Shown here piece after piece: positions 1,889 to 37,709 of a stretch of DNA of 64,000 nt. The notes beneath the pieces are model-generated. The model had not been told where the DNA came from, did no database searches, and saw only the letters and a program-made list of their open reading frames with translations. The DNA is from Escherichia coli (lineage in GTDB: Bacteria > Pseudomonadota > Gammaproteobacteria > Enterobacterales > Enterobacteriaceae), in assembly GCF_050320075.1 (NCBI RefSeq), contig NZ_CP190018.1; one strand, written 5' to 3'. A program made the translations under genes and the position numbers. Every line of letters begins with the position of its first letter. Within the stretch, counting starts at the first letter, position 1.

Positions 1889-1892
1889 AGCA

Positions 1893-1923
1893 AACTCCAA
1901 AAACCCTCCGGCGAACCGGAGGG
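1893..1923 (-). terminator. putative intrinsic terminator or attenuator between ygeY and hyuA
   Basis: Hairpin CCCTCCGG-cgaa-CCGGAGGG followed on the minus strand by TTTTTGGAGTTTG. Confidence 0.45.
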
Positions 1924-1940
1924 GAATAAGTGAAGAGTAA

Positions 1941-3152: not shown

Positions 3153-3209
3153 TATTTTTCTCCAGATTTTTTACTCCCCGTTTTGCAGGGAGCAGTTCCA
3201 ATAGGGTGA

Positions 3210-4406
3210 TTAAGGTGCTACAGCGTGTTTGCCTTCCCAGACAACTTCGCGGTAGTGCTTCACGTCTGTGTCGCCTTCAGTGCTGATAACCAGCACTACG
3301 GCATCTTTGTTCAGCGCCAGTTTTTCCATCAGGCTTTGACGTTGCGGGTGATAATGAACCGCTGCGAGAACGCCCAAACCGACAGCGCCGGATTCACCGG
3401 AGATGATGCGTGGGTCATTGCCGTACGGGTTACCCAGCACACGCATACCTAATGCGGCAACGCTGTCCTGGCAGGAGATGAATTGGGTGGCGCAGTTACG
3501 TAGGATTTCCCAGCCCAGCGGGTTAGGTTCGCCGCAGGCCAGGCCCGCCATGATGGTGGCCATATCACCGCCAACGTTGACGATGTCGCCTTTGACGCCG
3601 GAGCGATAAATACAGTCAGCTTTGTCAGGTTCAACAATAATGCTGTGCAGATTTTGCGGGCTGTAGACGTCGACCAGATAACCCAGCACACCACCGGCCA
3701 TTGCACCGACACCGGCTTGCAGCAGAACGTGCGTCGGGGTTACGCCCATTTCACGCATTTGCTCGACGGCTTCATCTGCCAGTGTTGCGTAGCCTTGCAT
3801 GATCCAGGTTGGGATTTTGGTGTAACCTTCCCAGGCGGTATCTTGCACCACTTCCCAGCCGTGCTGCTGCGCGTGTTGCATGGTCAGGCGAACGGTATCG
3901 TCATAGTTCATATCCGTGACGATGCACTCGGCACCGAGGTTCAGAATGGCGTCAACGCGTTCCTGAGCAGAACCTTTCGGCATGTAAATCACCGCATTCT
4001 GTCCGAGTTGCTGTGCTGCCCACGCCACACCGCGCCCGTGGTTGCCGTCGGTGGTGGTCGCGAAAGTCATTTTTTCGCCGATGGCATTTTTCAGGTGCTC
4101 AAATGACAGCGTTTCGATATCAAGATGATATTTTTCGCACAATAATTGAGCGATGGCGTATGCACCGCCGAGCATTTTGAAGGCGTTCAGACCGAATCGT
4201 TTTGATTCGTCTTTGACGAGAATTTTCTTCACACCAAAAAGGTTTGCGAGATCGTTCAGCGCACAAAGCGGTGTTGGGCGATAACCAGCAATTTTCTGGT
4301 GGAACTGGCGCGCCAGTTTGGCCTGGCTTTGCGAAAAGAGCGGTGATGTTTCGCCGTTGAAAAATTTGTTATCGGCGATATCAATCTTCAATGAGAAAAC
4401 GGACAT
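3210..4406 (-). CDS. ygeX: diaminopropionate ammonia-lyase (PLP-dependent)
   Basis: 398-aa ORF; PLP beta-family fold signatures (lysine-containing motif, glycine-rich loops); size and position match K-12 ygeX/dpaL as recalled. Confidence 0.85.
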   Translation of the reverse strand: MSVFSLKIDIADNKFFNGETSPLFSQSQAKLARQFHQKIAGYRPTPLCALNDLANLFGVKKILVKDESKRFGLNAFKMLGGAYAIAQLLCEKYHLDIETLSFEHLKNAIGEKMTFATTTDGNHGRGVAWAAQQLGQNAVIYMPKGSAQERVDAILNLGAECIVTDMNYDDTVRLTMQHAQQHGWEVVQDTAWEGYTKIPTWIMQGYATLADEAVEQMREMGVTPTHVLLQAGVGAMAGGVLGYLVDVYSPQNLHSIIVEPDKADCIYRSGVKGDIVNVGGDMATIMAGLACGEPNPLGWEILRNCATQFISCQDSVAALGMRVLGNPYGNDPRIISGESGAVGLGVLAAVHYHPQRQSLMEKLALNKDAVVLVISTEGDTDVKHYREVVWEGKHAVAP

Positions 4407-12856: not shown

Positions 12857-12930
12857 GCGGGCGTAGTTCAATGGTAGAACGAGAGCTTCCCAAGCTCTAT
12901 ACGAGGGTTCGATTCCCTTCGCCCGCTCAA
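12857..12930 (+). tRNA. glyU: tRNA-Gly (anticodon CCC)
   Basis: GCGGGCGTAGTTCAATGGTAGAACGAGAGCTTCCCAAGCTCTATACGAGGGTTCGATTCCCTTCGCCCGCTC; acceptor stem pairs, anticodon loop CTTCCCAAG, T-loop GGTTCGATTCC; 3' end reads CAA rather than CCA. Confidence 0.9.
12913..12928. repeat. attL core: 16-bp direct repeat (tRNA-Gly 3' end)
   Basis: TTCCCTTCGCCCGCTC identical to 32061..32076. Confidence 0.7.
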
Positions 12931-13094
12931 AACAAACATTTCTCAACGTCTACTGAAGTCCATCAAATCCACGAATATCAAGCCTTTCAGCCATTTTCAT
13001 AGCTTATTAACGTCTACTCACAACTACCAGAATCTACACACAGAAGTGTATAGTAATGCGTATAGGACAAAATTTATTTTTTGGAGCTATACAC

Positions 13095-14309
13095 ATGCTG
13101 CTTTCAGACCTTGCTATCAGGCGCGCGAAGCCGAAAGAAAAGGCTTATACACTCAATGACGGTAACGGGCTTTCGTTACTCATTGAGCCGAACGGCTCGA
13201 AAGGGTGGCGACTACGTTACAGATTTGCAGGAAAGCCCAAAATGTTGTCGTTGGGCGTGTACCCTGATGTGTCTCTGTCTGATGCCAGAGCGGCAAGGGA
13301 TGAGGCTAAAAGGCTTCTTGCTGGTGGTATAAATCCAAGTGAGGCCAGAAAAGCTCAAAAGCGAGAACAGGCGAGCAAATTTGGCAATACTTTTGAGGGT
13401 ATCGCTCGCGAATGGTATGAAAAGCGGATCGACAGGTGGTCATCGTCATACGCCGAGGAAATGATCGAGACGTTTGAAAAAGACGTTTTTCCGTACATTG
13501 GCGGCAGGCCGATCGCAGAAATTAAGCCAATGGAGTTGCTTGCGGTTCTCTCCCGTCTTAATGACCGTGGGGCGACCGAAAAATTGCGTAAGGTTCGCCA
13601 GCGATGCGGCGAGGTGTTCCGGTACGCAATCATCACCGGACGCGCTGAATATAACCCCGCACCAGATCTGGCAAGCGCATTTGCTCCACACAAAAAAGAG
13701 CATTATGCCTATTTGAAGGCCGACGAACTGCCGGAATTTTTCCGCGTTCTTAATACGTACACCGGAAGCCAGATCGTCAAGCTGGGTATGCGATTATTGA
13801 TTCTGACAGGGCTCCGGCCAGGGGAATTACGACAGGCAGAATGGCAGGAGATCGATTTTGATAATCGTTTGTGGGAAGTGCCTAAAGAACGAATGAAGAT
13901 GCGCCGTCCTCATTGTGTGCCGCTTTCAGAACAGGCGATCGCTATTCTGGAACAGTTAAAACACATGACGGGGCAGTATCAGTTTATTTTCCCTGGTCGA
14001 ATCCAGCACAGTAAGCCGATGAGTGAAATGGCGATGAACGTGCTTATTCGTCGTATTGGCTATTCTGGGCGCGTTACTGGTCATGGGTTCCGGCACACGA
14101 TGAGCACGATTTTACATGAGCAGGGCTATAACACCGCGTGGATAGAAACGCAGCTTGCACACGTTGATAAGAACTCAATTCGTGGCACGTACAATCATGC
14201 GCAATATCTGGACGGGCGGCGCGAGATGCTCCAGTGGTACGCCGACTATATGGACTCACTGGAACAGGGCGGCAACGTGGTGCATGGCAAGTTCGGAAAA
14301 TGTGGATGA
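13095..14309 (+). CDS. tyrosine integrase, P4-type
   Basis: ORF 13056..14309; N-terminal LSDLAIRRAKPKEKAYTLNDGNGLSL and catalytic-domain HGFRHT ... Y residues typical of P4/CP4-57-like integrases. Confidence 0.85.
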   Translation: MLLSDLAIRRAKPKEKAYTLNDGNGLSLLIEPNGSKGWRLRYRFAGKPKMLSLGVYPDVSLSDARAARDEAKRLLAGGINPSEARKAQKREQASKFGNTFEGIAREWYEKRIDRWSSSYAEEMIETFEKDVFPYIGGRPIAEIKPMELLAVLSRLNDRGATEKLRKVRQRCGEVFRYAIITGRAEYNPAPDLASAFAPHKKEHYAYLKADELPEFFRVLNTYTGSQIVKLGMRLLILTGLRPGELRQAEWQEIDFDNRLWEVPKERMKMRRPHCVPLSEQAIAILEQLKHMTGQYQFIFPGRIQHSKPMSEMAMNVLIRRIGYSGRVTGHGFRHTMSTILHEQGYNTAWIETQLAHVDKNSIRGTYNHAQYLDGRREMLQWYADYMDSLEQGGNVVHGKFGKCG

Positions 14310-14431
14310 CTGGTTGAGTATACAGTAGTAGACTTTGAGCGACGAAAGAAAAAGCTGTGTCTAGGGTCGCTCCCGAAAAACCGTATACCTCGACGGGCTG
14401 GCACAGCCACTACAGTAGAGGACGCTGAGGT

Positions 14432-15235
14432 GTGCGTATGATTGATATTCATGCCGAATTAAACGAATACAAAAAAGATTTTATTTCTTTACGTGAATTT
14501 CTTGAGGTCGTGCTTAAGGTCGCTGGTGATGATTATGATGTTTCAGATCTCATAACTTGGATACTCAGGAGAATAAGCGGAGAACATATCCGCCTGTACA
14601 CAGTAAATGAATTTAAGCTGTTGGAATCTTTTTGTAACCCGTATCGGGATGAATTTGATTATGATGTTCTTTATAGAAATCTGGATGCGGTTCGGAAACA
14701 TGGTTGTTTACCTGGTGAGAGGGATGAAAATGGTTTTCTGGTGTCCGGTTATTGGGAAGATCCCGAATTTGAGAACATTGGATTTATAAGGGGTGAAATT
14801 TTCGCAATTTTTCCCGATGTCCTTGACGCGTTAACGAAGCTGGAAGGCGCTAACTCTTCTGAAAATGACGAGGTACAAGGACGCGATATTGAAAAGAAAG
14901 AGTTGCGTACAGAGGATGATTTATTATCCCAAATCGCAATGCTGGAAAGAGAAAACGCAGAGTTAAGGGCAAGGATAGAGCAGTTAGAGCAAGAGCGCCC
15001 GATACACTTATATAAATACTGGGATAAAGACCCATTAGCTAAGGCTATTGAGATTAGAAACAGAGAGTGGGCCAATTACGATCCAGAAAATGATTTTGCC
15101 ACCAGGGGAAATCAAGAAGCGATAACCAGGGAGCTTAAGCAGTGGGGGGCAAGTAATGCTCTTGCAACGCTCATAGAGAGGACTGCCTGCCCTATTAACC
15201 GAGACAACAGCCAAAAGAACGCAAAGCCGGATTAA
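14432..15235 (+). CDS. hypothetical protein (267 aa), acidic with coiled-coil segment
   Basis: Long ORF in AT-rich DNA between int and alpA; heptad-like LSQIAMLERENAELRARIEQLEQE; no family recognised. Confidence 0.5.
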   Translation: MRMIDIHAELNEYKKDFISLREFLEVVLKVAGDDYDVSDLITWILRRISGEHIRLYTVNEFKLLESFCNPYRDEFDYDVLYRNLDAVRKHGCLPGERDENGFLVSGYWEDPEFENIGFIRGEIFAIFPDVLDALTKLEGANSSENDEVQGRDIEKKELRTEDDLLSQIAMLERENAELRARIEQLEQERPIHLYKYWDKDPLAKAIEIRNREWANYDPENDFATRGNQEAITRELKQWGASNALATLIERTACPINRDNSQKNAKPD

Positions 15236-15248
15236 CGCACCATACCGC

Positions 15249-15399
15249 ATACCCTGAGGGTGATTTACTGTTACCCTGAGGGTATTTTTTTATCTTCCCC
15301 GTCAATTTTACCATCACCCTTAGGGTAGATTTCCTCCCGATTACCATCACCCTTAGGGTTAATTTCCTTCCGGTAACCATTAGGCCTGAGGGTATGAAA
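15249..15399. repeat. array of five palindromic ACCCT(G/T)AGGGT motifs (putative regulator binding sites)
   Basis: taccctgagggt x2, catcacccttagggt(a/t) x2 within a 33-bp direct repeat, ggcctgagggta; located just upstream of alpA. Confidence 0.6.
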
Positions 15400-15462
15400 A
15401 TATTCGTTATTTCTGTGCCATGATTACCTCGTCAAATTGAGTAGACGTTATGAGGTAAATAG

Positions 15463-15660
15463 ATGTCAAATACGCTTATTCGTTTAACAGAAGTTCAGCG
15501 TAGAACTGGATATAGCAAGGCATGGATTTATCGCCTTATGGGGCAAGGTAAATTTCCTGCATCAGTTAAAATTGGCTCGCGAGCGATTGCTTTCGTTGAA
15601 AGTGAAATTGACGAATGGATCAATCAGCGTATTGCCGAATCACGCGGAACGGCTGCCTGA
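15463..15660 (+). CDS. alpA: AlpA-family transcriptional regulator / excisionase-like (MerR-type HTH)
   Basis: 65 aa, LTEVQRRTGYSKAWIYRLMGQGKFP motif characteristic of AlpA/phage regulatory protein. Confidence 0.8.
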   Translation: MSNTLIRLTEVQRRTGYSKAWIYRLMGQGKFPASVKIGSRAIAFVESEIDEWINQRIAESRGTAA

Positions 15661-15735
15661 TTAAATAGCTACGGGTTATTGCCCAAGCTATCCACTAGCA
15701 AATAAAAAGTAACTTAATTCGATAGCGGAGTTTTT

Positions 15736-16560
15736 ATGAAACTGCGAAAAACGCCCGTACAGGGGCAGGGCTTTGTTCGGCCTGAAAACCAGAATCTGCA
15801 AAATTTCGGCGAAATTATCCCGGTTATTTCCGGCGTTATTGGCGGGCGTGAAGCCGCTGTTGTTAGCGCAAAAGCGTTACACAAAGCGTTGGGCGTGGGA
15901 AAAGACTTCTCTACATGGATCACTGATCGTATCTCTGAATATGACTTCACCATTGGGTACGATTACTCAGTCCATAAAACAATTTCCCCAAATTTGGGGA
16001 AAAGCCCGAATGGCGAGGCTTACAGCAAGATTAAGCACTCTGGCAGACCCGGTAAAGACTATCTGTTAAGTGTCGGAATGGCGAAAGAACTGGCAATGAT
16101 CGAACGCACCGAACAGGGCCGCGCCGTTCGTCAGTACTTCATCAAATGCGAGGAGGAGCTACACAAAGTAGCGCCAGTGCGTTCCGCAGCGTTACGCCGT
16201 GAACTGAAAGCCCGTATCACCGTTGCCAGCTACTTTAAGCCGATGTGTGCCGCGCTGGAGGCGTACCGCGCTGAACTGGGTAAAAACACGCTCCAGCACC
16301 ACTACACCACGGAAGCCAATATGCTGGCGCGTATCGTGCTGGGTGGCATGACTGCAAAACAGTGGGCGCAGGCGAACGGCATCACAGGCGAACCACGCGA
16401 CCACATGAGCACGCTGCAGCTTGAGCACCTTTCTTACCTTGAGCAGAGCAATATCACGCTGATTGAGTTAGGCCAGGACTACCACCAGCGGAAAGCTGAA
16501 TTAATTCGTCTTTCGCAACGCTGGTTAGCCCGCCGCATGGAGGTGAGCAGCCATGCGTAA
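15736..16560 (+). CDS. phage antirepressor-like protein (KilA-C-like domain), tentative
   Basis: 274 aa; position after alpA and adjacency to a Bro-N gene; domain call is from memory of motif content only. Confidence 0.45.
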   Translation: MKLRKTPVQGQGFVRPENQNLQNFGEIIPVISGVIGGREAAVVSAKALHKALGVGKDFSTWITDRISEYDFTIGYDYSVHKTISPNLGKSPNGEAYSKIKHSGRPGKDYLLSVGMAKELAMIERTEQGRAVRQYFIKCEEELHKVAPVRSAALRRELKARITVASYFKPMCAALEAYRAELGKNTLQHHYTTEANMLARIVLGGMTAKQWAQANGITGEPRDHMSTLQLEHLSYLEQSNITLIELGQDYHQRKAELIRLSQRWLARRMEVSSHA

Positions 16561-17110
16561 ACCTGTCTTTTATGCCGGGCGCACTGAAATCTCTGTCATT
16601 AAATTCGATGACATTCAGGTGCGCATAGTGAGTATCAACGGCGAGCCGTGGTTTGTTGGCGCTGATGTGTGTGCTGCGCTGGAAATCAGCAATGTTACTG
16701 ATGCTGTTTCAGTTCTGGATAACGACGAGGTAATGACCCTAGCTTTAACCGAGGGGCATTCCGGTAAGCGTGGTGGTGCCAGAAGCTGGAATGTTGTCTC
16801 TGAATCAGGTTTCTACAAACTGATCGCCCGCAGCCGTAAAGCTTCCACACCTGGCACATTTGCGCACCGTTTCAGTAACTGGGTATTCCGCGAGGTTATT
16901 CCTTCAATCCGCAAAACGGGGAGTTATGGTGTTCCGTTTGCCATGCTGAATGATTTCAGTAAACGCCAGGCTGCATATCAACAGGAAGCCAGCAAACGCG
17001 GTTACAGGTTACAGCAATGCAAAGAGGCAAAAGATGCACTGGAACGAGAAGAGCGGGCGCTATGGCGTAAATATCAGCCTGATTTTCTGGAGGGTGAAAG
17101 CAATGTGTAA
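16553..17110 (+). CDS. Bro-N domain protein (prophage antirepressor family), tentative
   Basis: 185 aa; N-terminal FxFxxxxVRxxxxxGEPWFV pattern typical of Bro-N; start overlaps previous stop. Confidence 0.5.
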   Translation: MRKPVFYAGRTEISVIKFDDIQVRIVSINGEPWFVGADVCAALEISNVTDAVSVLDNDEVMTLALTEGHSGKRGGARSWNVVSESGFYKLIARSRKASTPGTFAHRFSNWVFREVIPSIRKTGSYGVPFAMLNDFSKRQAAYQQEASKRGYRLQQCKEAKDALEREERALWRKYQPDFLEGESNV

Positions 17111-17278
17111 CGATCCGAACGTTACAGAAAGAAAAAGCGCCCCGTTGCTGGATAACAGGCAAAACAAAGGCGACCGGGATAGGTCGCCAGTGGGAACAAA
17201 GGAAATCAAACGCATCGCCAACAATGCCAGATTTGCGGCTGGTGGGCAATGTGATCAGTGTGCTGGCTTGCTGGTGGG

Positions 17279-17476
17279 CTATTCCTGCTCTTTAGCATCG
17301 CCATACTGCGATGTTTTCCAGGTATGCGATCCCATTTTTGTGCGCCTGTACTCTTTTAAGAACTTCTCAAGGACAAACGCACATGGTGCAAATCTTTCCT
17401 GTTCTTGTTCGCTTACCGCATTTTTGCGTTGTTTTTTCCTGGATGAGGATAATTTCTTTAATGATTTGTCAGTCAT
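17279..17476 (-). CDS. small basic protein, diverged paralogue of the adjacent 65-aa gene
   Basis: 65 aa; shares C-terminal ...AKEQE and upstream nucleotide similarity with 17534..17731. Confidence 0.3.
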   Translation of the reverse strand: MTDKSLKKLSSSRKKQRKNAVSEQEQERFAPCAFVLEKFLKEYRRTKMGSHTWKTSQYGDAKEQE

Positions 17477-17533
17477 CGTAGATACCTGTAACCCTGTGCG
17501 CCACAGTTCACCGCACCACGGCGCTGGTGATGG

Positions 17534-17731
17534 TTACTCCTGCTCTTTGGCCTTCCGGCGCTGTTCATATTTTAATTTGCGTCCACAGGCATCTAAGACC
17601 CATGCGGAAAAATTAGCACTAGGATTAGTTAATTTTTCTTGTTCAACACTGGCATCAATCCCATCTATAAGCTCGTGCGGGAATCGAATATTTTTCTTTG
17701 CTGATTTGTTGTTTGTGTTTCCGCTAGACAT
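17534..17731 (-). CDS. small DNA-binding-like protein (YlcI/YnfO-like, tentative)
   Basis: 65 aa; IRFPHELIDGIDA ... NFSAWVLDAC resembles small prophage regulators as I recall them; divergent from the rightward operon. Confidence 0.45.
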   Translation of the reverse strand: MSSGNTNNKSAKKNIRFPHELIDGIDASVEQEKLTNPSANFSAWVLDACGRKLKYEQRRKAKEQE

Positions 17732-17757
17732 TGGTACACCTCACTTAAATGGATTTG

Positions 17758-17841
17758 ATGGGCGCACACAATACAGCAAAAAAAGTGAGAAGTTAAGTAT
17801 TGACATGTGCGCACACATGATTTTAATCTGTGCGCACAGTT
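17758..17841. promoter_or_regulatory. three (T)GTGCGCACA palindromes overlapping a TTGACA -35 box (operator/promoter region)
   Basis: ggcgcacaca (17761), TTGACAtgtgcgcacacatg (17801), ctgtgcgcacag (17828). Confidence 0.5.
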
Positions 17842-18132
17842 TGGGTTGCATTGCTCAAATTAAGCAACGCCCCGCAGTGCTCGCAACACATGCAGGGCGT
17901 CTAACCACCAACGATAGAAAGCGTATCGAGGTAGCTATGTTAAATCATACCACACACCCGCAAGGGCGGGACTCGCACAACCTGAATAAATACATCTGGC
18001 GTTTTATCGCCCTGAGCACCGCACAACCACGCGTAATACACATCGAGGCCGCCAGCGAACAGGAAGCCCGTCAGCAATCCCCGGCTGGCTGCGTGATGGT
18101 ATTTACTGCCCGCATCCGTCAGGGGGAATACT

Positions 18133-18390
18133 ATGCGTGATGAACGATTTATTCTTCTGGAGCAAAAATTCAGTGAAGCGCCAAAAAATGAAATTGATGC
18201 TCTTTTGCATATCGCGAATATGCTAAAAGTAGCAACGTTCCTTATAGTTTCGAATCTGGAGCATGAAACGGCGTTAGATATACTGAACAGTGCTGTCGAT
18301 TATTCTGAATATATTGCCGAGGATAAATACAGGCAATTACCAGATTTGTTAGCCCATAAATATAAAGAAGAACCTCACACCGGGAAATAA
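18133..18390 (+). CDS. hypothetical protein (85 aa)
   Basis: ORF in operon context upstream of the replication protein. Confidence 0.4.
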   Translation: MRDERFILLEQKFSEAPKNEIDALLHIANMLKVATFLIVSNLEHETALDILNSAVDYSEYIAEDKYRQLPDLLAHKYKEEPHTGK

Positions 18391-18392
18391 AC

Positions 18393-18695
18393 ATGAAGAA
18401 GATTAAATTTACTGGCTTAAATGCCAGCGGACAGACTCACCCGAAAATCAGGATCGGGGATATTTTCCGGGATAAATATGGTGACAGCGTGGTTATTAAT
18501 TCCGTGTATGAACGGCACATTACATACCGCCGCGCAGGGTACGACTATGACTGTGTGATGCCCGTTCATCAGTTCCGGCGTGATTTTTCACTGGTATGTG
18601 CAGTACCACGCAGTAAGCCCACCAGTAAAGAGAAAGCACGGGCAAATATTCAGGTAATAAAGAACATGATTAACGCATTCAGGGGCAAGAAATGA
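18393..18695 (+). CDS. hypothetical protein (100 aa)
   Basis: ORF tightly spaced, its stop overlaps the next start. Confidence 0.4.
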   Translation: MKKIKFTGLNASGQTHPKIRIGDIFRDKYGDSVVINSVYERHITYRRAGYDYDCVMPVHQFRRDFSLVCAVPRSKPTSKEKARANIQVIKNMINAFRGKK

Positions 18696-27645: not shown

Positions 27646-30401
27646 TGAAACAGGCATGTGTTGAAGCTATTGCGCAGACACTTGGTCGCCAGCCAAAGGC
27701 TGATGAGCTGAAAAATATCGAAGATCGTATCAAAGAAGCAGTGCAACATGTGCACAGAAAGAATGCAAAAGAAGGCAAAAGTGGTATTCCTGATGCTCAA
27801 ACATACATGGATGCTGCAGAACTGGTACGCCAGCGTGTGGTTCATGATGTGTACAAGAAAAGACAGCGTGTTGCCCAGAATGCGATCGCCATCAGTAAAA
27901 TTACTGACACTCTCGATGCTAACATCCCGCCTGATCAGCAGACACCTGTTAATTTGCAGCAGTTTATTTTTGCTGGCCGACGATCGAGAGACAAAGCTGA
28001 TATCTCCGTTGCTTCTGCTGAAGAGCTTGCAATTGGGGCATATCAGGACTGGTCCCGTCAGCTCAGTGCTGAACTTCTAAAAGCAGGTGATGACGTCCGC
28101 AAATTCTTCGAGCAGAGCAGGGCGCTTGGAGAGCAGCGGTTTCGGAGTGTATTCGACAGGCAGGCGGCAAAGTCTGCACAACTCCAGATCCTGAAAGAAA
28201 TTTATGGCGAAGATACCGGGAATCCCCTGGCGAAGAAAATTGCACAGATTTGGAAGGATGTAACAGGCCGTGTTCGTCATGAGATGAACGACAACGGCTT
28301 TGACATAGGCCTGCGAGAAGACTGGCATACGCCATATGTGGATGATGCTGACCTTATTCGCAATGCCGGGCGCGAAGAATGGCTGGCATCGTTACCAGTG
28401 GCAGAGCAAGCTACAGCACGTCTTTCAGGTCGCCAGCCACCGATTGAGTTTGCCCGCCAGAAATGGGTTGATGACGCTTACAACACGCAGGATCGCAGCA
28501 ATTACGTTAATCCTGACGGCAGCATTATGAATGACGTCGAGTACCGTCAGGCACTGGAAGCGATCTTTGAAACGAAGGCCACTGATGGGGCAAACAAAAT
28601 TGAGCCCGGTACATTTATGGGAGCCGGAGGAATAAAGAGCCGTGGTTCTCAGCACAGGGGGATGGCGTTCAAGGATGCGCAGTCACACTTCGCCTATATG
28701 GAGCGATACACTCAGCAGCCGCTGGTGGGGGTGATGATGTCGCACCTGCAATCATCATCCAGGGATTTGGGCGTCGTTAAAGCCTTTGGTCCGGACGCCG
28801 AAAGAAACTTTTCCCTGGTACTGGATCGCATCTATAAGCGCGCAGTAACAGGCGGGAAACGCAAAAAAGAAATGGAGGATGAGGCCAAATTAGTAGCCCG
28901 TATGTTCAACTCAATGGCTGGCCTAAATGGTGTCGCTTCATCGAGTGTGTTCTCTTCAGCTGTTGGTGGTCTGCGTAACCTGATGACCAGCGCCATGCTT
29001 GGCACCAGCGTACTGACAGCAACCAGCGACCAGGCAATTATGCGGGCAAATGCGCAGGCGCTGGGCTTTACCCGTGGTGGAATGCGGCTTTCCGTTAACA
29101 CTATCAAAAACCTGTTTAGTGGAGATGCCAAAAAGGCGAATGCTGAACTCGGTCTGCTGGTGGATTCACATGCTGCTGTGGTTTCGAAAATGGGCGGGTT
29201 TGACTTGTCTCGCGGCATAACTGGCTGGTTCGCAGAGAAGACACTGAAGTGGTCCGGGCTGATCGCTATGGACCGCGCAAACAAAGCGTCGTTTGGTCTC
29301 CTGATGTACAAAAACATTGGCGAGCTGACCAGAAAATTTAAGACGCTGGACGATATGAAAGGAACCGATAAAACCATTCTGGCTAACAAGGGATGGAGCA
29401 ATGAGGACTGGGCCATCATGGCAGCGGCAGAACTCAGGCCGATGACTACTGCCGGGCATATGGGGATGACGCCAGACGCGATTTACGCTGTGCCCGATAA
29501 CGTAATCGCCGACATTATGGCAGACCGTATTACCCGGATTCGTGCCGGGAGTGAAAAGGCACTGGCAGCACTTGGAGATCTCCCTCCAGAACGCCTGAAA
29601 CGGATGAAAGAAGCATTCGACGCTGAGGCTGAGCAGACCATCACGCGCATGATTCGTAATGCACGCGCTGAAGCAGCCCATAAATTGCTGGGAATTACGC
29701 ACGGTGAGATGACCAATGCTGTGACCACCGCTACGGGTATTGATACATATGCCCGTGATGATGCTGGCGAGTTAATGAAGAGCTTCATGCTCTTCAAAAC
29801 AACCCCATTTGCTGGATTTCGGCAACTTGTTAACAGAACACGGGATTTGGACACCGTTCCGGCCATTAAATTTCTGGCCTCATATATCGGGGGAACAACT
29901 CTTGCTGGTATGTTTGCGATCCAGATGAACAGTTTGTTAAATGGTAATGATCCGCTGGATATGACAAAACCAACCACATGGGTTCAGGCTTTACTGAAAG
30001 GTGGTTCGTTCGGTATCTACGGTGATTTTATTTTCCAGGACCATACGCAATATGGCTCCAGCATCGGTGCCACTATGGGTGGCCCTGTGTTGAGCTTTGC
30101 AGAGCAGTTAACAAAATTACTGATTACTAACCCACAGAAGGCTCTACAGGGTGAAGAAACATCATTCGGTGCCGATGCACTGAAAACAGCCCGCATGATC
30201 ACCCCATTCGCAAACCTGTGGTATGCGAAAGCGATAACCAATCACCTGATATTGCAACAACTTCAGGAGATGGCAAACCCTGGTTACAATGATCGAGTAA
30301 GGGACCGCGCGCAACGGGAGTTCGACATAACGAGTTGGTGGGAACCGGGTGCTATTGCGCCACGTAGAGCACCGGATTTTGGAAAGGCGGTGGGGAACTG
30401 A
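27645..30401 (+). CDS. large hypothetical protein (about 918 aa)
   Basis: ATG at 27645 overlaps previous stop (TAATG); ORF track 27624..30401. Confidence 0.65.
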   Translation: MKQACVEAIAQTLGRQPKADELKNIEDRIKEAVQHVHRKNAKEGKSGIPDAQTYMDAAELVRQRVVHDVYKKRQRVAQNAIAISKITDTLDANIPPDQQTPVNLQQFIFAGRRSRDKADISVASAEELAIGAYQDWSRQLSAELLKAGDDVRKFFEQSRALGEQRFRSVFDRQAAKSAQLQILKEIYGEDTGNPLAKKIAQIWKDVTGRVRHEMNDNGFDIGLREDWHTPYVDDADLIRNAGREEWLASLPVAEQATARLSGRQPPIEFARQKWVDDAYNTQDRSNYVNPDGSIMNDVEYRQALEAIFETKATDGANKIEPGTFMGAGGIKSRGSQHRGMAFKDAQSHFAYMERYTQQPLVGVMMSHLQSSSRDLGVVKAFGPDAERNFSLVLDRIYKRAVTGGKRKKEMEDEAKLVARMFNSMAGLNGVASSSVFSSAVGGLRNLMTSAMLGTSVLTATSDQAIMRANAQALGFTRGGMRLSVNTIKNLFSGDAKKANAELGLLVDSHAAVVSKMGGFDLSRGITGWFAEKTLKWSGLIAMDRANKASFGLLMYKNIGELTRKFKTLDDMKGTDKTILANKGWSNEDWAIMAAAELRPMTTAGHMGMTPDAIYAVPDNVIADIMADRITRIRAGSEKALAALGDLPPERLKRMKEAFDAEAEQTITRMIRNARAEAAHKLLGITHGEMTNAVTTATGIDTYARDDAGELMKSFMLFKTTPFAGFRQLVNRTRDLDTVPAIKFLASYIGGTTLAGMFAIQMNSLLNGNDPLDMTKPTTWVQALLKGGSFGIYGDFIFQDHTQYGSSIGATMGGPVLSFAEQLTKLLITNPQKALQGEETSFGADALKTARMITPFANLWYAKAITNHLILQQLQEMANPGYNDRVRDRAQREFDITSWWEPGAIAPRRAPDFGKAVGN

Positions 30402-30715
30402 TGACGAGAGATAAAATTGAATATATTGCTTCTCTTAAATATGAAGCTGAGAAATGGAGAAGGATTGGCTGGTGGGGAACATTAATATCACTCTCTGCTT
30501 TACTTATAGACTCCTGGTTCAGACATATTGATGCAGCATCATTACTTTTTGAATCAGCAGTACTTGGTGGATTCATTTGCTGTTGGGGTGGTAATTATGA
30601 TCGGGCGTCCAAACATAAGAGAGAACTTGACGCGATATGTTTTGCTTTATTCGGTAAGGATTACGAAAGTTCTGACCTTGATATAATTGAATTCAACAAA
30701 ACGGAACTATCGTGA
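30401..30715 (+). CDS. small membrane protein (104 aa)
   Basis: Start overlaps previous stop (TGATG); two hydrophobic helices (WWGTLISLSALLI, AVLGGFICCWGG). Confidence 0.5.
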   Translation: MTRDKIEYIASLKYEAEKWRRIGWWGTLISLSALLIDSWFRHIDAASLLFESAVLGGFICCWGGNYDRASKHKRELDAICFALFGKDYESSDLDIIEFNKTELS

Positions 30716-30723
30716 CATGTCAC

Positions 30724-30749
30724 AGGCCGCTTTCGCGGCCTTGTTTTTA
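30724..30749 (+). terminator. intrinsic terminator ending the cargo operon
   Basis: AGGCCGCTTTCGCGGCCT followed by TGTTTTTA. Confidence 0.6.
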
Positions 30750-31417
30750 ACGAATGCCACCGCCGCCCGGGCGGGAATTCGCAGATAAAAAAGCACGCTG
30801 CACGGTTTTATTAATACTTATACCATTAGGATTGATCCTTCAATGGACAATCCTTCCATCGTGTGGCCAGCCATTCATATTCTTTGTCTTTTCTTCAGTA
30901 TCGGCTTTGCATCTTCTACACCCTGAAAGATGTCGTTTTATGGTGTATCTGATGATTTATTCCCTAACAATAGATATTCGAAAAATTAATCAGTTAAAAC
31001 AATTATTTGGATAATTTCAGGTAAAACTATCTTAATCTTCTGGTGGATCTCAATGCGTAGTGACGGTATCGGGATTAAGGGCGTGGATATTCGCGATATA
31101 TGCCGCTACACCCCTCAACAGTAATAGATATGAGCTTTTCACGCTCTCCTTTCACTGCTGAGAACGGCAACAACGTGCCACAGGAACGCGCTGTAATCGA
31201 TTCTGACGCACTTAATTGCGTTGGGTAATGGTTTTTGCCAGCCTGTGGGGGTAACTCTGTTTTATGAGGCTTTGGCTATAGTGCAAAAATACACTTTGTC
31301 TTGCCTCTCAATTTGATGAGACTGGAACGACAACAGGACAGACCACCAGCAACAGTTACCGTATTCAGCCGTTCTGTGGCACCAGTGGAACTATCAACCC
31401 CTGCTTTCAGAAATGTG

Positions 31418-31573
31418 TTTGCGGGTTATTTTGGGGCGTTTGCGGGTTATTTGGGATGTTTTGCGGGTTATGTGATGCTTGAATAATGAACAGTGTATTT
31501 TGCAACATATTGATACTAAAGAACAAAAAATAGTTAGAATACTAAGATAACCCGGTAACCCGCATAACCCGCA
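31418..31573. repeat. iteron cluster 2: three GTTTGCGGGTTAT and three TAACCCG(C/G)A copies flanking an AT-rich spacer
   Basis: gtttgcgggttatt x2, ttttgcgggttatg, then ataacccggtaacccgcataacccgca; same motif as cluster 1. Confidence 0.6.
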
Positions 31574-31978
31574 CTGTTTTGTATATATATACGAAAAATT
31601 GCATTCAGGAGGGGGGGAGCGAAATCCCTACAATCCATTGCTTATGGGACCGCCCGCCTCGTCAAATTTTTACACCCGCGAAATAAAAAAATACTTCACG
31701 CTGGTGGGCATGATGCTGATATGGGAGGCTTCCATAACGCCACCATTCGGAACTATGCAAATCTGCATAGAAAAGGGGATGCCTGATACAATACCCTCGC
31801 CCGATAAAATCACACCGATAAACTCATCTGCCACGAGTAGAAAGAGCGAACGAACCCGATACGCAGTAATGCTTGTCGGGTACAGCTTTTTAAGGCGGCT
31901 GTAGATATCAGGCCATCCGTGATCATCCACCAGCGAGATAGCCGATAACGATGACGCATAACCCTCAAGCGAGGGATA

Positions 31979-32003
31979 AATGTGTATAGAAATGTGTATA
32001 GAA
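31979..32003. repeat. tandem ATGTGTATAGAA repeats (candidate integrase arm-type sites)
   Basis: aatgtgtatagaa-atgtgtatagaa about 58 bp from attR; related gtgtatag / ctatacaca motifs near int at 13040-13092. Confidence 0.35.
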
Positions 32004-32060
32004 TTGATTTTAGAACTCGCAGGATTCGCGCTATTACTGGCCTTGTGTGATGTTGTATTG

Positions 32061-32076
32061 TTCCCTTCGCCCGCTC
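32061..32076. repeat. attR core: 16-bp direct repeat of the tRNA-Gly 3' end, followed by CA (intact CCA context)
   Basis: TTCCCTTCGCCCGCTC identical to 12913..12928. Confidence 0.7.
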
Positions 32077-32575
32077 CAGAATCTCCCCAGGTGGAGAAGA
32101 CTAAAAAAGTCTTCTCTGTCAGCAACTTAAACAGTTACCTATTTAATTTGCTTAGGAGTTCTACCATTGTGATCCGCCCTTAGTAACTGTCACGTTAAGT
32201 TACACGGTGAGATGACAGTATAACCTAACGTTGGCGGCAGTTGCACCTCTCACACCGCGATAGCACAACGTGAAGATAAAGCCCATCCTGGCATTGTAAT
32301 GTCATCGACAGACTGAACACACGCATTTAAGCCCGATGTGCGGCCTTGTGGCTGCGTAAACAGGTTTATGGTGATATTGGTCCTTGCAAACCATATGCAA
32401 GCTCTATCAGCGTTTCAGCCACGCTCCCAACGGGTACACGGTTATCCTGATAAGGTGTGATCTTTCTGACAATCTGATGAAGTCGCTACGCTCCCGCTTG
32501 TTGCTGTATCACCAACGGGGCTTTATGGTTTCTATTGTCTATAATAATCTCACAATTCCCCTGCATGAGGTTGAT

Positions 32576-32782
32576 ATGACTGTTAGCTACAAGATTACTT
32601 ATGAGCATAGAGACGGTGATCAAATTAGAATGGAAGAGGTTTTATTCCATTCAGAGCATGAACCAACAAAAGATGAAATTCATGATGCAGTAAGAAAAGA
32701 TACTGTGAGATTTAATTCTCCATCTAATGGAGTAACGGCTGTTTCAGGGTTTAAAGTGATTTCGGTTGTCCCTGTTCCATGA
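32576..32782 (+). CDS. small hypothetical protein (about 68 aa)
   Basis: ATG at 32576 preceded by GAGG; part of ORF 32384..32782. Confidence 0.35.
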   Translation: MTVSYKITYEHRDGDQIRMEEVLFHSEHEPTKDEIHDAVRKDTVRFNSPSNGVTAVSGFKVISVVPVP

Positions 32783-32815
32783 ATGGTTATAGAAGGGGCT
32801 GGAAGCCCCTAATTA

Positions 32816-33136
32816 TTACTTCTTAATATCGCCAGTGCATTGATATTCGATAGTCACAAGTGTTTGCATACAACCAGATGAAGAAGGTTGTGAACATTGA
32901 GAAGTGAATCCACCAAAAGGCTCGGCTCCTGAATATCCCCAAGCGGCACAACGCGCTTTGGCTGCATTCATGCCTTGTTGTGGATCTACAACAGGGCTTT
33001 CAAACATACCGTAAGAATAACTCATCCTAACTGTGCCGTCTGATTTGCTTCCACCAGTTGGAACGAGTTGTTTTTTTGTTGCACATCCAGAAATAATCAA
33101 TGTTGAAGCAAGTAACAGCATTAAACTTTTGCGCAT
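32816..33136 (-). CDS. putative lipoprotein
   Basis: Signal peptide and lipobox (LIISGCATK); 106 aa with several Cys. Confidence 0.5.
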   Translation of the reverse strand: MRKSLMLLLASTLIISGCATKKQLVPTGGSKSDGTVRMSYSYGMFESPVVDPQQGMNAAKARCAAWGYSGAEPFGGFTSQCSQPSSSGCMQTLVTIEYQCTGDIKK

Positions 33137-33280
33137 GTAAATAATCCCAAGAGATAATGGTTATGTATTGATTTAAAGCGTTTTTAGATTAATGCATTAA
33201 CTTAGCAAAATTAAGTCTTTTCTGATTGTTTGCAGAGTAAAAATGAGTTGCTTTCGAAATTATTTCGGATGTTTATTGTA

Positions 33281-33448
33281 TTACGGTTTTTCAAACCGTC
33301 TAACTATTGTCGCTATTGAATGGGCAATAATAGCAAGAGGATTCATTTCGTCATTGGAGGCAACAAAAAGTCGGTAACTAATAGCCACAACGAATGCAGC
33401 AATAACGAGAAAGCGGATAGTGCTAAGATGTTTTGAAGATAAATGCAT
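33281..33448 (-). CDS. small hydrophobic peptide (55 aa), speculative
   Basis: MHLSSKHLSTIRFLVIAAFVVAISYRLFVASNDEMNPLAIIAHSIATIVRRFEKP; below the ORF-track size cutoff, found by manual translation. Confidence 0.25.
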   Translation of the reverse strand: MHLSSKHLSTIRFLVIAAFVVAISYRLFVASNDEMNPLAIIAHSIATIVRRFEKP

Positions 33449-33788
33449 AACGCCCCCTAAATGAATGTGAGGGGGATTAAATCATGCAAATTTGTTATGT
33501 GCAATACTGGTAATTTATCCTAATAGTCTACTATTCACCTCAATCTACGTCAACCAATATTTGATGTAGATTTAATTTTCTTTTAAAAACAATATGTTGC
33601 AATTTGTTGGATTTTTGGGTTAGGTTGTTTTTTGAACGTTTCCATCAAGTGTAAAGATACGTTTAGCCTTCATAGTGAGTTCAGTTACTGTCTTTTTATC
33701 TGAAATCGGCGCAAACGTGATCATCGCTTAACGAGAAGATCAGCGCCGTCAGGTCCACGCGGCGACAACTCTGAAATATCAGGAGGCA

Positions 33789-34340
33789 TTACGCTTCCTG
33801 CTCTTTCTTGATACGTTGCACCGTCTGTGTGCTGACACTGAAATCTTTTGCTACGCTCCGAATTGATCCACCATTCGCGAGAGCGGCAGCAATTCCTGCT
33901 CGATCAATTGCTTTTCCATTACCACGTTTTGCTATACGTCCAGCGGCCTTAGCTGCGGCGATCCCTTCACGTTGACGCTCAAGCATCATTTCACGTTCCA
34001 TTTGTGCCACTGCTGCAAGCACTGTGAGCATCATATTCCCTGCGGGAGAGTTCTTCCCTGTCTTAAAGTCTTCTTTATGGAAATGCACAGACACGCCGCG
34101 CTCTGTTAATTGCTCAACCGTTGCCAGTAGGTCGGCTGTATTACGGCAAAGTCGATCAATGCTGTGAACATGCAAAACATCACCTTCCCGCACATAGTTC
34201 ATCATTGCCTCAAACTGTGGGCGCTGGGTATTTTTGCCTGACGCTTTATCTTCAAAGACTTTATCAAGAGTTACTCCAGCTAATTGACGGTCTGTGTTTT
34301 GTTGGACAGTCGATACCCTAATGTATCCAATATTAGCCAT
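33789..34340 (-). CDS. serine recombinase (resolvase / DNA-invertase family)
   Basis: N-terminal IGYIRVSTVQQNTDRQ with catalytic Ser; C-terminal HTH; ORF 33789..34346. Confidence 0.8.
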   Translation of the reverse strand: MANIGYIRVSTVQQNTDRQLAGVTLDKVFEDKASGKNTQRPQFEAMMNYVREGDVLHVHSIDRLCRNTADLLATVEQLTERGVSVHFHKEDFKTGKNSPAGNMMLTVLAAVAQMEREMMLERQREGIAAAKAAGRIAKRGNGKAIDRAGIAAALANGGSIRSVAKDFSVSTQTVQRIKKEQEA

Positions 34341-35267
34341 TTTCATTTTCCTTCTGTGTTGATTTGTGTGTAGTGATTATTGATCGTGTTGATTAGGTGT
34401 GTAAAGGACTTTTTTCACTACGAAATTCGAAGGTTTTTAGTGTGGTGATTTAGCCTGCTTTATCACTACACGTCTTGCATGAGAATCATGTAGTTACATT
34501 TTGGTAAAATTAGCAAGCTATTAAATAGTGTGTTTATTTTGAAAAAATAATTTTTTGTTGCATTAAAGGAAACTTGTTCAATAAATGATAGAACGTTTAT
34601 TGAGCAACAATTTTGCAGTGATGCGCTATATGCCGCATTACATAAGGCTTTGCTGATGATAATGTAAAAGTGAAGAAAGCTAACATTGCTCTTTTAAGCT
34701 ACTTTTCATTGAATTTTTAGTATGGAATTACATAGGGATAAACTATGAATATTCTATGATTTACACGAGATATTCTTGCTGTTTAATTCCGGCTTTGGAG
34801 ATCAGGCATTCGCAAGAATACGCTAACGCGTTGCCTGAAAAGCCATTGCACATAATAGAGGTGAGCGTATAGCGAACTATCAATGTGATCATTGCACGAA
34901 TGATAATGAGTGGATATAGATTCTATATATCGTTAGATTGTAGTTTGATAGTTAATGTGTAATGTAGATTGTATGAGCGTATAGCGAATGTTAGTTAGAT
35001 CAACAACAAACTAACCTTTAAATCTCTTTTATCTTCTCATAGATATGGCTATGCGTAGCAACCGAAGGTTAGCCAATCATCTCTATGCAGCCGTAAGGCT
35101 GTTTTGCATGTAATAGTTGTTTGTTGTTGTTAGACAGTTACCAATTTATAGATCAGAGATAGATGTGAGCGTTGAGCGATACACTAATCATAACAACATC
35201 TTCTTACTTTTTAGTTAGTTGTTAGTAGGTTATTGTTATGCGCGCTATTAGCGCATGTATAAAGGTA

Positions 35268-35370
35268 TCATTTTTATCTAAAGGGCTTTAGACATTTTTG
35301 ATACCTTTTTCATCTCTAAAAAAGTGTAATTTTTATCTAAAGGGGCTTTAGACATTTTTTACACCTTTTT
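35268..35370. repeat. two copies of an approximately 42-bp direct repeat
   Basis: atttttatctaaagggctttagacatttttgataccttttt and atttttatctaaaggggctttagacattttttacaccttttt. Confidence 0.6.
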
Positions 35371-35553
35371 CTGTGCAAGACACTTACCAGTGTGCACAAT
35401 ACTTATGCTTTTCTAAAGCCGGGAATTTTTAAGTTTGATTGATCAATTGTTAACTTTAAAAGTTACTTTTAACAATCACTTAGACGATCTAAAGCCGCAA
35501 TTAACATAATATAAGTTGACATGCAAGCACTTTTTACCGTATAGTGCGGGTTT

Positions 35554-35604
35554 CCTACCTACCCAGGAAATGAGTTCCTACCTACCCAGGAAATGAGTTC
35601 CTAC
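35554..35604. repeat. 23-bp tandem repeat, about 2.2 copies
   Basis: cctacctacccaggaaatgagtt x2 followed by partial cctaca. Confidence 0.65.
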
Positions 35605-36701
35605 AATACTATAATTAAACTACAATTAAACTATCTTTTATAAATTCTTTTATCTTTTAAAGAATAATTATAGGGATACCCGTTAGGGAGTCTTCGACTA
35701 TCCCTTAATCTATTGGCATTCGCCAGAACCTTGCACAAGTTAGACTGATGCTTGTCATAACAGATAGTTTTTGTTTTTTGTTAGTAGTTAGCTGATCTAT
35801 GTTCGCTTTCCGCTCACAACGAATATGTAATCTACTATGTGCAAATAGCCTACGGCTTGCGTATGGCTAATAGTCTTGCGCTGTGCGCAGAACGATAATT
35901 AACTAACTACCATCTAACGATTGAAATTTACTTGTGCAATAACCTGAGCATAAGCGAATGGTTGTTAGTGTCTATGCGCTGTGCGCTTCAATAGTTCCAT
36001 TGATGAGGCTTACGCCAATCTAACGATCATCAATCTATTTAAGAGAAAATCTATTGTGCAATACTCTGACGAGTGCAATAACCTTGTGTGCTACGCGTTA
36101 GCGATGTTAGCACATAGACACAGACAACAACCAACAACAAACAAAAAAGAAAGAATGGTTTTAGTAGTTGAAGGTTAAATAAGTTTCTACCGCTTAAATC
36201 AAGCCGTAGGCGAGCTAAACGTATATAAGGTAGGGAAACACTTAGCGGTAATAGATTAGCTCGTTATAGAGCTTCTGAGGAGCTTTACAGGTATTTTATA
36301 AGATGTCTGAAATCAGAGTTTATCTATCCACCATCTTTCCATCATCTGATAAATCAAAAATAAGCCCCTTAAATAAGCCTCTGACGAGATAAACAACCTC
36401 TACATAAGGGAATGTATTGTTTTTATCAAAACCCCCGTCAGAGTGCGATTGAGAGCGTTTTAGACAACAGGGAAGAATTGTACCAGAGTAGGCAGCACAA
36501 AAAGCTAAGAAAAATTATAAGAAATTGAAAATGATCAAGTTTTTTATAAAAGAGGGTTGACAAAGCCGCCGTTATGTAGTATTGTAAGTAGGGAGGGGAG
36601 AAACATCTCTCTCCATCTAAATAATCAAATCACAGAACACTGCACTTTGAGCCGTCAGGCTGCAAGGTGTGTTTTTCTTTTATCTAAATAAGGAGTTTTT
36701 T

Positions 36702-36884
36702 ATGAAATGGTATACACCGGAACACGTCGTAGAGGCATTTAAAAAAGGTGAGCTAACACGACATCAAGTAAGGATGAACAGGAACACAGCGCGGCGCTGT
36801 GGTTATCCAGAGCGTGAAAAATGCTTTGACGATGCACTAAAAATTATTGATGAACTGCGTAAGGCAGAAGCAGAGAAAGAATAA
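36702..36884 (+). CDS. small hypothetical protein (60 aa)
   Basis: ATG with AAGGAG 8 nt upstream; MKWYTPEHVVEAFKKGELTRHQ. Confidence 0.35.
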   Translation: MKWYTPEHVVEAFKKGELTRHQVRMNRNTARRCGYPEREKCFDDALKIIDELRKAEAEKE

Positions 36885-36907
36885 TAACAGGAGAAGGAGA
36901 AAACCAA

Positions 36908-37087
36908 ATGAATATTAATTTTGATTCTGCAACTTATAACGCGTTGTTAAATCGTGCAAAGGCAGAAGGGAAATCAATTCCAAAACTTGTTAATGAATTA
37001 CTAATTACAGTCCTTACAAAGGAGGAACTAAATGAACCAAAACACCAAAACAATTGCCGAAGCAAAAGCGCAATGCCTCAATAAGAA
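36908..37087 (+). CDS. small ribbon-helix-helix-like protein (about 59 aa), tentative
   Basis: Manual translation MNINFDSATYNALLNRAKAEGKSIPKLVNELL; GGAGAAAA upstream. Confidence 0.3.
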
Positions 37088-37697
37088 AGATAGTAAACAA
37101 ACATATGTAGTAGTTGAACAATGGCTGAAGATGTTTAAAAAGTGGTTCTCACCGTCAGGTAAGGAATACACCGCGACACTTCCAGCCGTTGAAATCTACA
37201 GTTACGTAGCTGGGTTCAATGAACAAGGGCAAGAATGTTACGCCAATCAAAAAACATTAGCTAATATTGGAATGGTTAGTGATCGTCAGGTGCGTAATAT
37301 TATAAATATGTTTATTGATATGGGTGTTCTTTCTGTAGAGGCACGGGACGGGCAAACATCACTCTATAAAGCATTACCCTTTACAGATGCACACATCACA
37401 CCACCGGAAGACGTAAAAACCTCTGTAAACGTAGAACAGCCTGCACCTGAAACACAGGAACCGTTAGAAGCGACACACTCTATTGAGCAGGAAACACAGG
37501 CAGAAATCACGGAACAATCTGATCTTTTTACATGGCTTATTTCCATAGACAGCCAAAAGCCTATGCAAGAAGAAACAGAAAATTTTATAAAACGTGCACT
37601 GACCTCGAAGAGGATAATTCTTGAAGATGATGCTTTTAATGCACTGATGATAGCCCTGAGAAAAGAAAGTGAAATCTATGACTCAATACCATTTTAA
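37032..37697 (+). CDS. hypothetical protein (221 aa), possible winged-helix DNA-binding / replication-initiator-like protein with acidic C-terminal half
   Basis: TLANIGMVSDRQVRNIINMFIDMGVL helix-turn-helix-like segment; functional call is weak. Confidence 0.35.
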   Translation: MNQNTKTIAEAKAQCLNKKDSKQTYVVVEQWLKMFKKWFSPSGKEYTATLPAVEIYSYVAGFNEQGQECYANQKTLANIGMVSDRQVRNIINMFIDMGVLSVEARDGQTSLYKALPFTDAHITPPEDVKTSVNVEQPAPETQEPLEATHSIEQETQAEITEQSDLFTWLISIDSQKPMQEETENFIKRALTSKRIILEDDAFNALMIALRKESEIYDSIPF

Positions 37698-37709
37698 GGA
37701 GAATAAAAA

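Follow-up and report, generated by a model that had tools for sequence, protein, structure and literature searches.

GhoT is a type V toxin of 57 aa with two transmembrane helices and, Hok aside, most type I toxins of E. coli are smaller than two-helix peptides of 52-64 aa. Small accessory genes of prophages also include the morons, such as bor and lom of lambda, and genes for exclusion proteins of the HK97 gp15 type. TisB/IstR-1, ZorO/OrzO, ShoB/OhsC and DinQ/AgrB are chromosomal type I loci of E. coli with long structured 5' UTRs (PMC4147584, PMC3919570): their toxins are single helices of 26-29 aa, and the cognate sRNA is divergent, with 18-21 nt of complementarity (PMC4147584, PMC3919570). 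Sequestration of the ribosome-binding site (RBS) is common in type I toxin mRNAs according to section 2.1.2 of PMC4147584. Two features of type I toxins are found at the locus described here, namely a small hydrophobic peptide with predicted transmembrane helices and an RBS sequestered in a stable predicted structure. As read from its sequence, the locus may best be explained as a genuine, tightly throttled small membrane-peptide gene with a type-I-toxin-like expression logic, a composite reading to which we give slightly less than an even chance.

The locus lies in a 64,000-nucleotide stretch of E. coli DNA (the window), which matches the E. coli YZLc1-3 chromosome (NZ_CP123240.1) at 100% identity. 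A first-pass annotation had placed there an unannotated hydrophobic peptide with a single membrane helix, between a lipoprotein gene and a recombinase gene, and had raised the possibility of a type I toxin or an exclusion factor. The location, strand and size of the ORF, as well as its YecR lipoprotein and recombinase flanks, were confirmed by the ORF listing and by Pfam:

33281-33448, minus strand: 55-aa ORF with an ATG start (ORF listing), belonging to the type 1 allele; its predicted product is a two-helix peptide of the inner membrane
33453-33458, minus strand: Shine-Dalgarno sequence (SD) AGGGGG, read from the sequence 4 nt upstream of the ATG; AGGAGG in the L012 and L031 alleles
32816-33136, minus strand: yecR-family lipoprotein gene (PF13992, E 1.8e-23), downstream of the ORF and 144 nt apart from it
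33789-34346, minus strand: gene for a small serine recombinase of 185 aa, DNA invertase-like (PF00239, Resolvase domain, E 1e-38; phrog_125, DNA invertase), upstream of the ORF

The ORF translates into MHLSSKHLSTIRFLVIAAFVVAISYRLFVASNDEMNPLAIIAHSIATIVRRFEKP. That it is unannotated holds for the genome records: there is no PGAP/RefSeq feature at the ORF in the identical genome, and the type 1 allele is unannotated in 21 of 21 genomes among the matches listed. The same cannot be said of the protein databases, where the identical 55-aa protein is already deposited as 'Uncharacterised protein' (CTS30664.1, on 572 contigs) and a 52-aa homologue is annotated as hypothetical. A literature search for the accessions and the peptide sequences found no mention of them.

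The peptide module occurs as three allelic types, which encode peptides of 55, 52 and 64 aa (types 2 and 3 at 60% and 26% identity, respectively). Type 1, the allele of the window, is found at a nucleotide identity of at least 95% in about 104 of 5,426 complete E. coli genomes. Type 2 (WP_000550450.1/WP_000550449.1) is found in about 172 of the 5,426, O104:H4 included, and PGAP labels it 'hypothetical protein' in other E. coli. Type 3, which has a GTG start, goes unannotated in strains NDM1, Dog168 and B1S11, where it occupies the same position. A profile search run exhaustively over 1.84 billion representative proteins returned the three Escherichia types only. Likewise, pattern scans of genome, viral and metagenome collections matched types 1-3 only, all in Escherichia or gut metagenomes, with no fourth type and no host outside Escherichia. 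A word-indexed search for distant homologues returned only alleles of at least 96% identity, tblastn against plasmids returned two E. coli records along with chance Rhizobium matches, and phage records gave no match. The family is carried by about 5% of complete E. coli genomes, O104:H4 and many STEC, ETEC and APEC strains among them, and standard annotation overlooks two of its three allelic types.

In some loci the module is altered. L004 (strain A15) and L011 (strain 95-3322) are natural recombinants, in which a type 1 leader (hairpin CCCCU/AGGGG) is joined to a type 2 ORF at a junction near the start codon; PGAP leaves their ORF unannotated, though the protein is identical to the annotated WP_000550450.1. 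At L012 (strain 2013C-4830), IS2 replaces the recombinase side of the module, and the promoter, the leader (CCUCCU/AGGAGG) and the ORF are intact.

The window contains two tandem islands at tRNA-Gly(CCC) (12857-12928). At their junction, 16 bp of the tRNA 3' end are repeated (32061-32076). The ORF belongs to the second island (about 32.1-45.5 kb), where it sits at the tRNA-proximal (att-proximal) end. This island carries genes for the recombinase, a Rep/HTH-like protein, a lambda-E-type major capsid protein, a 613-aa protein with a tape-measure PHROG match and, at the far end, a tyrosine integrase. Related elements adjoin thrW, glyU and a tRNA-Leu gene (leuX-type) in other E. coli, with the same module at the tRNA-proximal end each time. 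The island itself (32061-45500) is compact, at about 13 kb, with little besides these genes; E. coli carries it at three distinct tRNA sites, and IMG/VR lists it. Its gene content has no obvious counterpart in the P4-like, PICI or cfPICI sets, and it may be an undescribed satellite type; the module marks the cargo end in this little-described family of small integrative elements that bear a capsid gene. The first island (12929-32060), at the same tRNA-Gly, encodes an integrase, a DUF927 primase-like protein, SSB, ProQ/FinO and Icd-like proteins, together with three very large ORFs in a row (843, 686 and 925 aa), whose only annotation is 'hypothetical'.

The recombinase gene is a swappable cassette with breakpoints at 33729 and about 34566, as seen at L003, L007, L015, L028 and L035, which differ there. 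It can be replaced, between the same conserved flanks, by an unrelated gene on the opposite strand that encodes a 183-aa protein with a signal peptide, the peptide module remaining unchanged; the recombinase is therefore not needed for the presence of the module. We also considered that an invertase might flip the adjacent segment or the promoter of the peptide gene, and rejected this idea: 17 of 17 related loci are collinear, and the apparent breakpoint in O6:H16 is a cassette swap, not an inversion. Between the recombinase gene and the replication-like genes lies a gene-less, AT-rich region of about 2.2 kb (34400-36650) with many short inverted repeats. It is 75-97% identical and collinear in 17 related elements, no inversion being seen despite the adjacent invertase, and in the window it includes a private insertion of about 800 bp (34750-35550). 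It could serve as an origin or for packaging, or encode a long non-coding RNA.

The length of the ORF says little about coding. The intergenic region comprises 652 nt at 35% G+C, and an ORF of at least 55 aa is found in 764 of 2000 shuffles (38%), so that the case for a gene must rest on other evidence. It is this frequency that lends support to a reading in which the locus is no protein gene at all, the open frame being incidental and the transcript either a non-coding RNA or simply the 5' portion of the yecR mRNA. The divergence between alleles points the same way: dN/dS is 0.64 between types, and the differences fall on the three codon positions as 11/10/14, with almost no three-base periodicity. 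PGAP, for its part, calls no ORF in type 1 or type 3 genomes.

Several observations stand against an incidental frame. The frame is intact in 41 of 41 complete homologous loci from genomes, IMG/VR and metagenomes, and it is open in all three divergent types. Type 3 is too diverged for a good DNA alignment; a 64-codon open frame would be found there by chance in about 1% of cases, and one that is also as hydrophobic as observed in 0.014% of trials. Types 1 and 2 differ at 35 of 156 nt, and the correlation of their hydropathy profiles (0.874) is reached in 1.4% of neutral simulations (p about 0.014); their amino-acid identity is not above the neutral expectation (28% of simulations reach it). 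A translation signal is present, the AGGGGG listed above being replaced by the canonical AGGAGG in some alleles, and the leader hairpin described below has as its 3' arm, without exception, a purine run resembling an SD, 4-9 nt ahead of an ATG or GTG. The start codon is unambiguous, since an in-frame TGA 12 codons upstream closes the frame. Neither outcome that would have refuted the first-pass annotation, a missing translation signal or an unconserved frame in homologous regions, was observed. Finally, the yecR-family gene accompanies the type 1 allele only and is absent downstream of types 2 and 3. This absence counts against a yecR mRNA leader and also led us to reject the ORF as a uORF for yecR. 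We consider a non-coding locus quite unlikely, and it is very likely that the ORF is a real translated gene.

Constraint on the peptide is nonetheless weak at the protein level. Within type 1, dN/dS is 0.15-0.31 and within-type variants are conservative (V/I, A/S, M/I). In codons 1-26, by contrast with the second half of the ORF, dS is oddly low (0.12 vs 0.75), and dN/dS is about 1. Recombination, of the kind seen in A15 and 95-3322, probably contributes to this uneven divergence along the ORF. Note that an antisense ORF of 38 aa (33320-33436, plus strand), codon-aligned with the sense frame, is open in types 1 and 2; it is hydrophilic, lacks an SD and can be explained most simply by codon usage in the sense frame.

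The hydrophobic, membrane-bound character proposed in the first-pass annotation was supported by hydropathy and structure prediction, the single helix was not. The peptides of 52-64 aa have GRAVY values of 0.56-0.97 and a hydrophobic core at residues 13-30. AlphaFold2, run on a shallow alignment of four sequences, predicted a helix at residues 3-32, a four-residue turn and a second helix at residues 37-53 (pLDDT 74), i.e. a two-helix hairpin. In all three types, basic residues are found at both termini and acidic residues in the inter-helix loop, following the positive-inside rule. The predicted topology is that of an N-in/C-in helical hairpin of the inner membrane, with both termini in the cytoplasm and a short acidic loop in the periplasm; provided that the peptide is translated, a membrane helical hairpin of this kind is likely. 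The second helix, of about 13 hydrophobic residues, is short enough that an amphipathic helix lying on the membrane surface is also possible.

Family searches left the peptide without relatives. At E-values up to 1, its only Pfam match was ThrE (0.043), which falls short of the cutoff of that family, and NCBIfam, PHROG, Rfam and PDB sequence searches with the peptide or locus gave zero matches. Among toxin families, Pfam and NCBIfam profiles gave no match to Hok/Gef (PF01848), Ldr, Ibs, ShoB, TisB, DinQ, ZorO or Fst. They gave none to GhoT/OrtT either, and the neighbouring genes are yecR and the recombinase gene, with no GhoS-type partner. As for holins and antiholins, there was no PHROG or Pfam match, and no lysis genes are annotated in the element. 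PADLOC returned zero matches for the peptide (all three types), the recombinase, YecR and the adjacent small proteins. Features of this kind are well known; as a family, the peptides are an uncharacterised sequence orphan whose members are already in databases as hypothetical proteins.

The region upstream of the ORF contains the following elements, to which we add an antisense site within the ORF:

33525-33553, minus strand: promoter-like site P1 (TTGACG, 17-nt spacer, TAGACT), a consensus match with a predicted start near 33518 and a leader of about 70 nt
33444-33488, minus strand: two-tier leader hairpin (MFE -16.3 kcal/mol, z -3.4)
33476-33504, minus strand: candidate second promoter P2 (TTGCAC, 17-nt spacer, (TG)aTTTAAT), a consensus match only
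33542-33572, no strand assigned: 12-bp inverted repeat AATCTACGTCAA-N7-TTGATGTAGATT overlapping the P1 -35 (-12.5 kcal/mol, z -4.9)
33560-33729, no strand assigned: near-invariant non-coding stretch upstream of P1 in all types (94% identity between types), bounded by the cassette breakpoint at 33729, the left boundary of the module
33326-33331, plus strand: -10-like hexamer AATAAT on the antisense strand of the ORF, weakly indicating an antisense-RNA promoter and lacking a usable -35 in this allele; a -10-like hexamer occupies homologous codons in all three types

P1 is the top-scoring promoter-like site on the sense strand in all three types, its -35 and surroundings being invariant; in type 3 it reads TTGACG-17-AATAAT with an upstream TG. 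We call it sigma-70-like in the sense of a consensus match only. The stretch upstream of it contains a 34-aa ORF (33620-33724, minus strand) whose frame changes in type 3 while the DNA similarity continues, which indicates that the conservation at 33560-33729 is non-coding. A leftward promoter-like site, TTGAAC/TTGACC (around 33633, plus strand), is conserved within this stretch, and RNAalifold found no RNA covariation in it.

The leader hairpin buries the translation start in two tiers. In the upper stem, the anti-SD CCCCCU (33475-33470) pairs with the SD; in the lower stem, UGCAUGAU pairs with GUUAUGCA, the latter including the start codon. Six representative leaders adopt one fold, with MFEs of -12.6 to -16.3 kcal/mol and z-scores of -2.8 to -4.5, and the SD and start codon are buried by the same fold in 11 of 11 distinct leader variants. 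Between types 1 and 2, identity is only 52% in the leader, against 94% over the 230 nt upstream. Within otherwise 98%-identical type 1 alleles, CCCCCU/AGGGGG has changed to CCUCCU/AGGAGG (L012, L031), a compensatory change; the stem shows paired changes in type 2 (CUUCC/GGAAG and CCUCC/GGAGG) and in type 3 (CACUCC/GGAGUG). Comparison of the alleles thereby gives direct evidence for a functional leader structure occluding translation initiation, and the leader provides a clean natural example of SD/anti-SD covariation. A full-length P1 transcript would be poorly translatable, and the peptide would be made at a very low level. For translation to occur, the hairpin would have to be opened or bypassed, whether by 5' processing, by a standby ribosome or by use of a P2 transcript starting just past the anti-SD.

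P2 is a hypothetical promoter only, but its geometry, like that of P1 relative to it, is curious. It reads TTGCAC-17-TTTAAT, TTGCAA-17-TCTAAT and TCTACA-16-TATAAT in the three types, and is the second- or third-best sense-strand site in each. Its -10 ends exactly at the start of the anti-SD in every type, though the segment is only 52% identical between types, and 'T.TAATC' is invariant in a seven-sequence alignment. In types 1 and 2, the -10 is without the key A at position 2 but is preceded by the upstream TG. Since the P2 -10 abuts the anti-SD, a P2 transcript would lack it. This arrangement could make the peptides orphan, Escherichia-restricted membrane toxins that have no classical antitoxin and are run by a two-promoter switch, a scheme that we regard as improbable. 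P1, as the strong upstream promoter, would make an inert transcript, its anti-SD locking the SD and AUG, and would occlude P2; a regulator bound to the inverted repeat over the P1 -35 would then allow P2 to fire, the short transcript free of the anti-SD would be translated, and the cell would be killed or arrested. The trigger would be induction or loss of the satellite-like element, or phage attack.

Downstream of the ORF, no terminator was seen between it and yecR in the window (type 1), so that the two may be co-transcribed. In type 2, a strong hairpin lies 3' of the ORF. The thrW-integrated elements (L002, 3568-3720, and equivalents) share a strong hairpin 3' of the peptide gene and carry, in place of the yecR cargo, a convergent 50-aa ORF that is highly basic (MKNIAAIKRNNRKIHARKF...) and annotated as hypothetical.

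The inverted repeat upstream of P1 can be read in two ways. On the plus strand it would form a hairpin followed by UUAAUUUUCUUUU, i.e. a terminator-like hairpin; an operator is an equally good reading. Type 3 retains the stem (-15.7 kcal/mol) but has a weak U tract. The first possibility bears on a classical type I pair, in which a cis-encoded antisense RNA would start inside the ORF, near 33338 (AATAAT) or 33436 (TGcTAAGAT), cover the start codon and leader, end at 33542-33585, and either block translation or trigger cleavage by RNase III. Such a pair would account for the terminator-like hairpin with its U tract just upstream of P1, in which the imperfect positions are G.U on the plus strand, and would suit the toxin-like features of the locus (a small membrane peptide and an occluded RBS). 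A weighted scan also detected antisense sites with scores of 9.2-9.3 in types 2 and 3, where they fall on homologous Ile-Ile or Ile-Leu codons around ORF nt 110-130. A good antisense -35 is found only in type 2 (TTAACA) and type 3 (TGGTCA), however: of the two sites in the allele of the window, one has no -35 and the other, TGcTAAGAT (33421-33429), scores 6.0. The same scan found no antisense promoter conserved across the three types, and a consensus promoter scan of the plus strand over 32700-34500 found none. The U tract is weak in type 3, the leader that would have to be paired is the least conserved segment (52% identity), and Rfam gave no match over 32500-36500. We therefore judge a classical type I pair unlikely.

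Nor did a partner emerge elsewhere. Pairing of the peptide-gene RNA with the upstream region, as computed with RNAduplex, was no better than that of shuffles, and 12-mer Watson-Crick matches over the whole 64-kb window were at chance level. The best trans candidate, at the 3' end of the recombinase gene (16 nt with 4 G.U pairs), was rejected: it is unconserved in types 2 and 3 and absent where the recombinase is replaced. The 34-aa ORF of the conserved upstream region was rejected as a partner protein, its frame being lost in type 3 while the DNA similarity continues. For an antitoxin of this allele, the evidence from sequence searches is leaning negative. The search for an antisense RNA suggested by the first-pass annotation gave a terminator-like hairpin on the plus strand and partial promoter candidates in types 2 and 3, and no conserved antisense promoter, trans-complementary RNA or Rfam match. 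As for the proposed type I toxin or exclusion factor, the leader hairpin sequestering the SD is typical of the former, but there is no conserved antisense promoter, trans RNA or family match to go with it.

The peptide could be membrane-active and harmful when made in quantity, its gene being a type-I-toxin-like accessory that serves element maintenance or interferes with phages. A toxin-like function, i.e. membrane damage upon de-repression in the service of element retention or abortive phage defence, is in our analysis a possibility that falls somewhat below an even chance. The peptide might instead be a benign membrane protein of the moron type, made at a low level, that binds a host membrane protein or blocks DNA entry by a competing phage, as in superinfection exclusion; it would cause no membrane damage, and the leader hairpin would merely set a low translation rate. 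The att-proximal position beside variable cargo such as the YecR lipoprotein, the gene's own promoter, the strong hairpin after the ORF in type 2 and the failure to find an antitoxin all speak for such a protein, and the fast allelic diversification behind an invariant regulatory region would fit a surface engaged in an arms race. On the other hand, PHROG, PADLOC and Pfam gave no match to an exclusion or defence protein, and an SD and AUG held in a hairpin of -13 to -16 kcal/mol would be unusual for a protein that is made constitutively. We regard both the benign role and the purely rate-setting hairpin as rather unlikely, and keep the throttled, toxin-like gene as the preferred reading. If the peptide is made and membrane-active, an unrecognised sequence-orphan family joins the toxin-like peptides of E. 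coli mobile elements. The interest of this is modest: a specialist would not be strongly surprised without experimental toxicity or a new control mechanism.

How the locus compares with the systems introduced above can now be specified. Like a moron, it forms an independent unit of a gene with its own promoter, located at the border of an integrated element and beside small envelope cargo (the YecR lipoprotein). Unlike morons, with which it shares no homology, it is present as diversified alleles in every related element examined, not sporadically, and its translation is strongly occluded. The likeness to GhoT is architectural only, consisting of a similar size and a predicted two-helix membrane hairpin; there is no Pfam match at an E-value of 1 or below, and no GhoS-like endoribonuclease gene is adjacent.

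In comparison with Hok/Sok (plasmid R1 and chromosomal hok; PMC4147584), no Hok/Gef Pfam match, mok-like coupling ORF or Sok-like antisense RNA was found here, and the peptide is a predicted helical hairpin with no conserved cysteines. Both, however, involve a membrane peptide of about 50 aa encoded on a mobile element, a structurally occluded translation start and a gene position suited to maintenance of the element. With respect to TisB, ZorO, ShoB and DinQ, the peptide is twice as long as the toxins, and complementarity of at least 12 nt beyond chance is absent from the 64-kb window. What the locus has in common with these four is the long leader with a sequestered RBS, from which the primary transcript would be expected to be inert and to need processing or a standby site.
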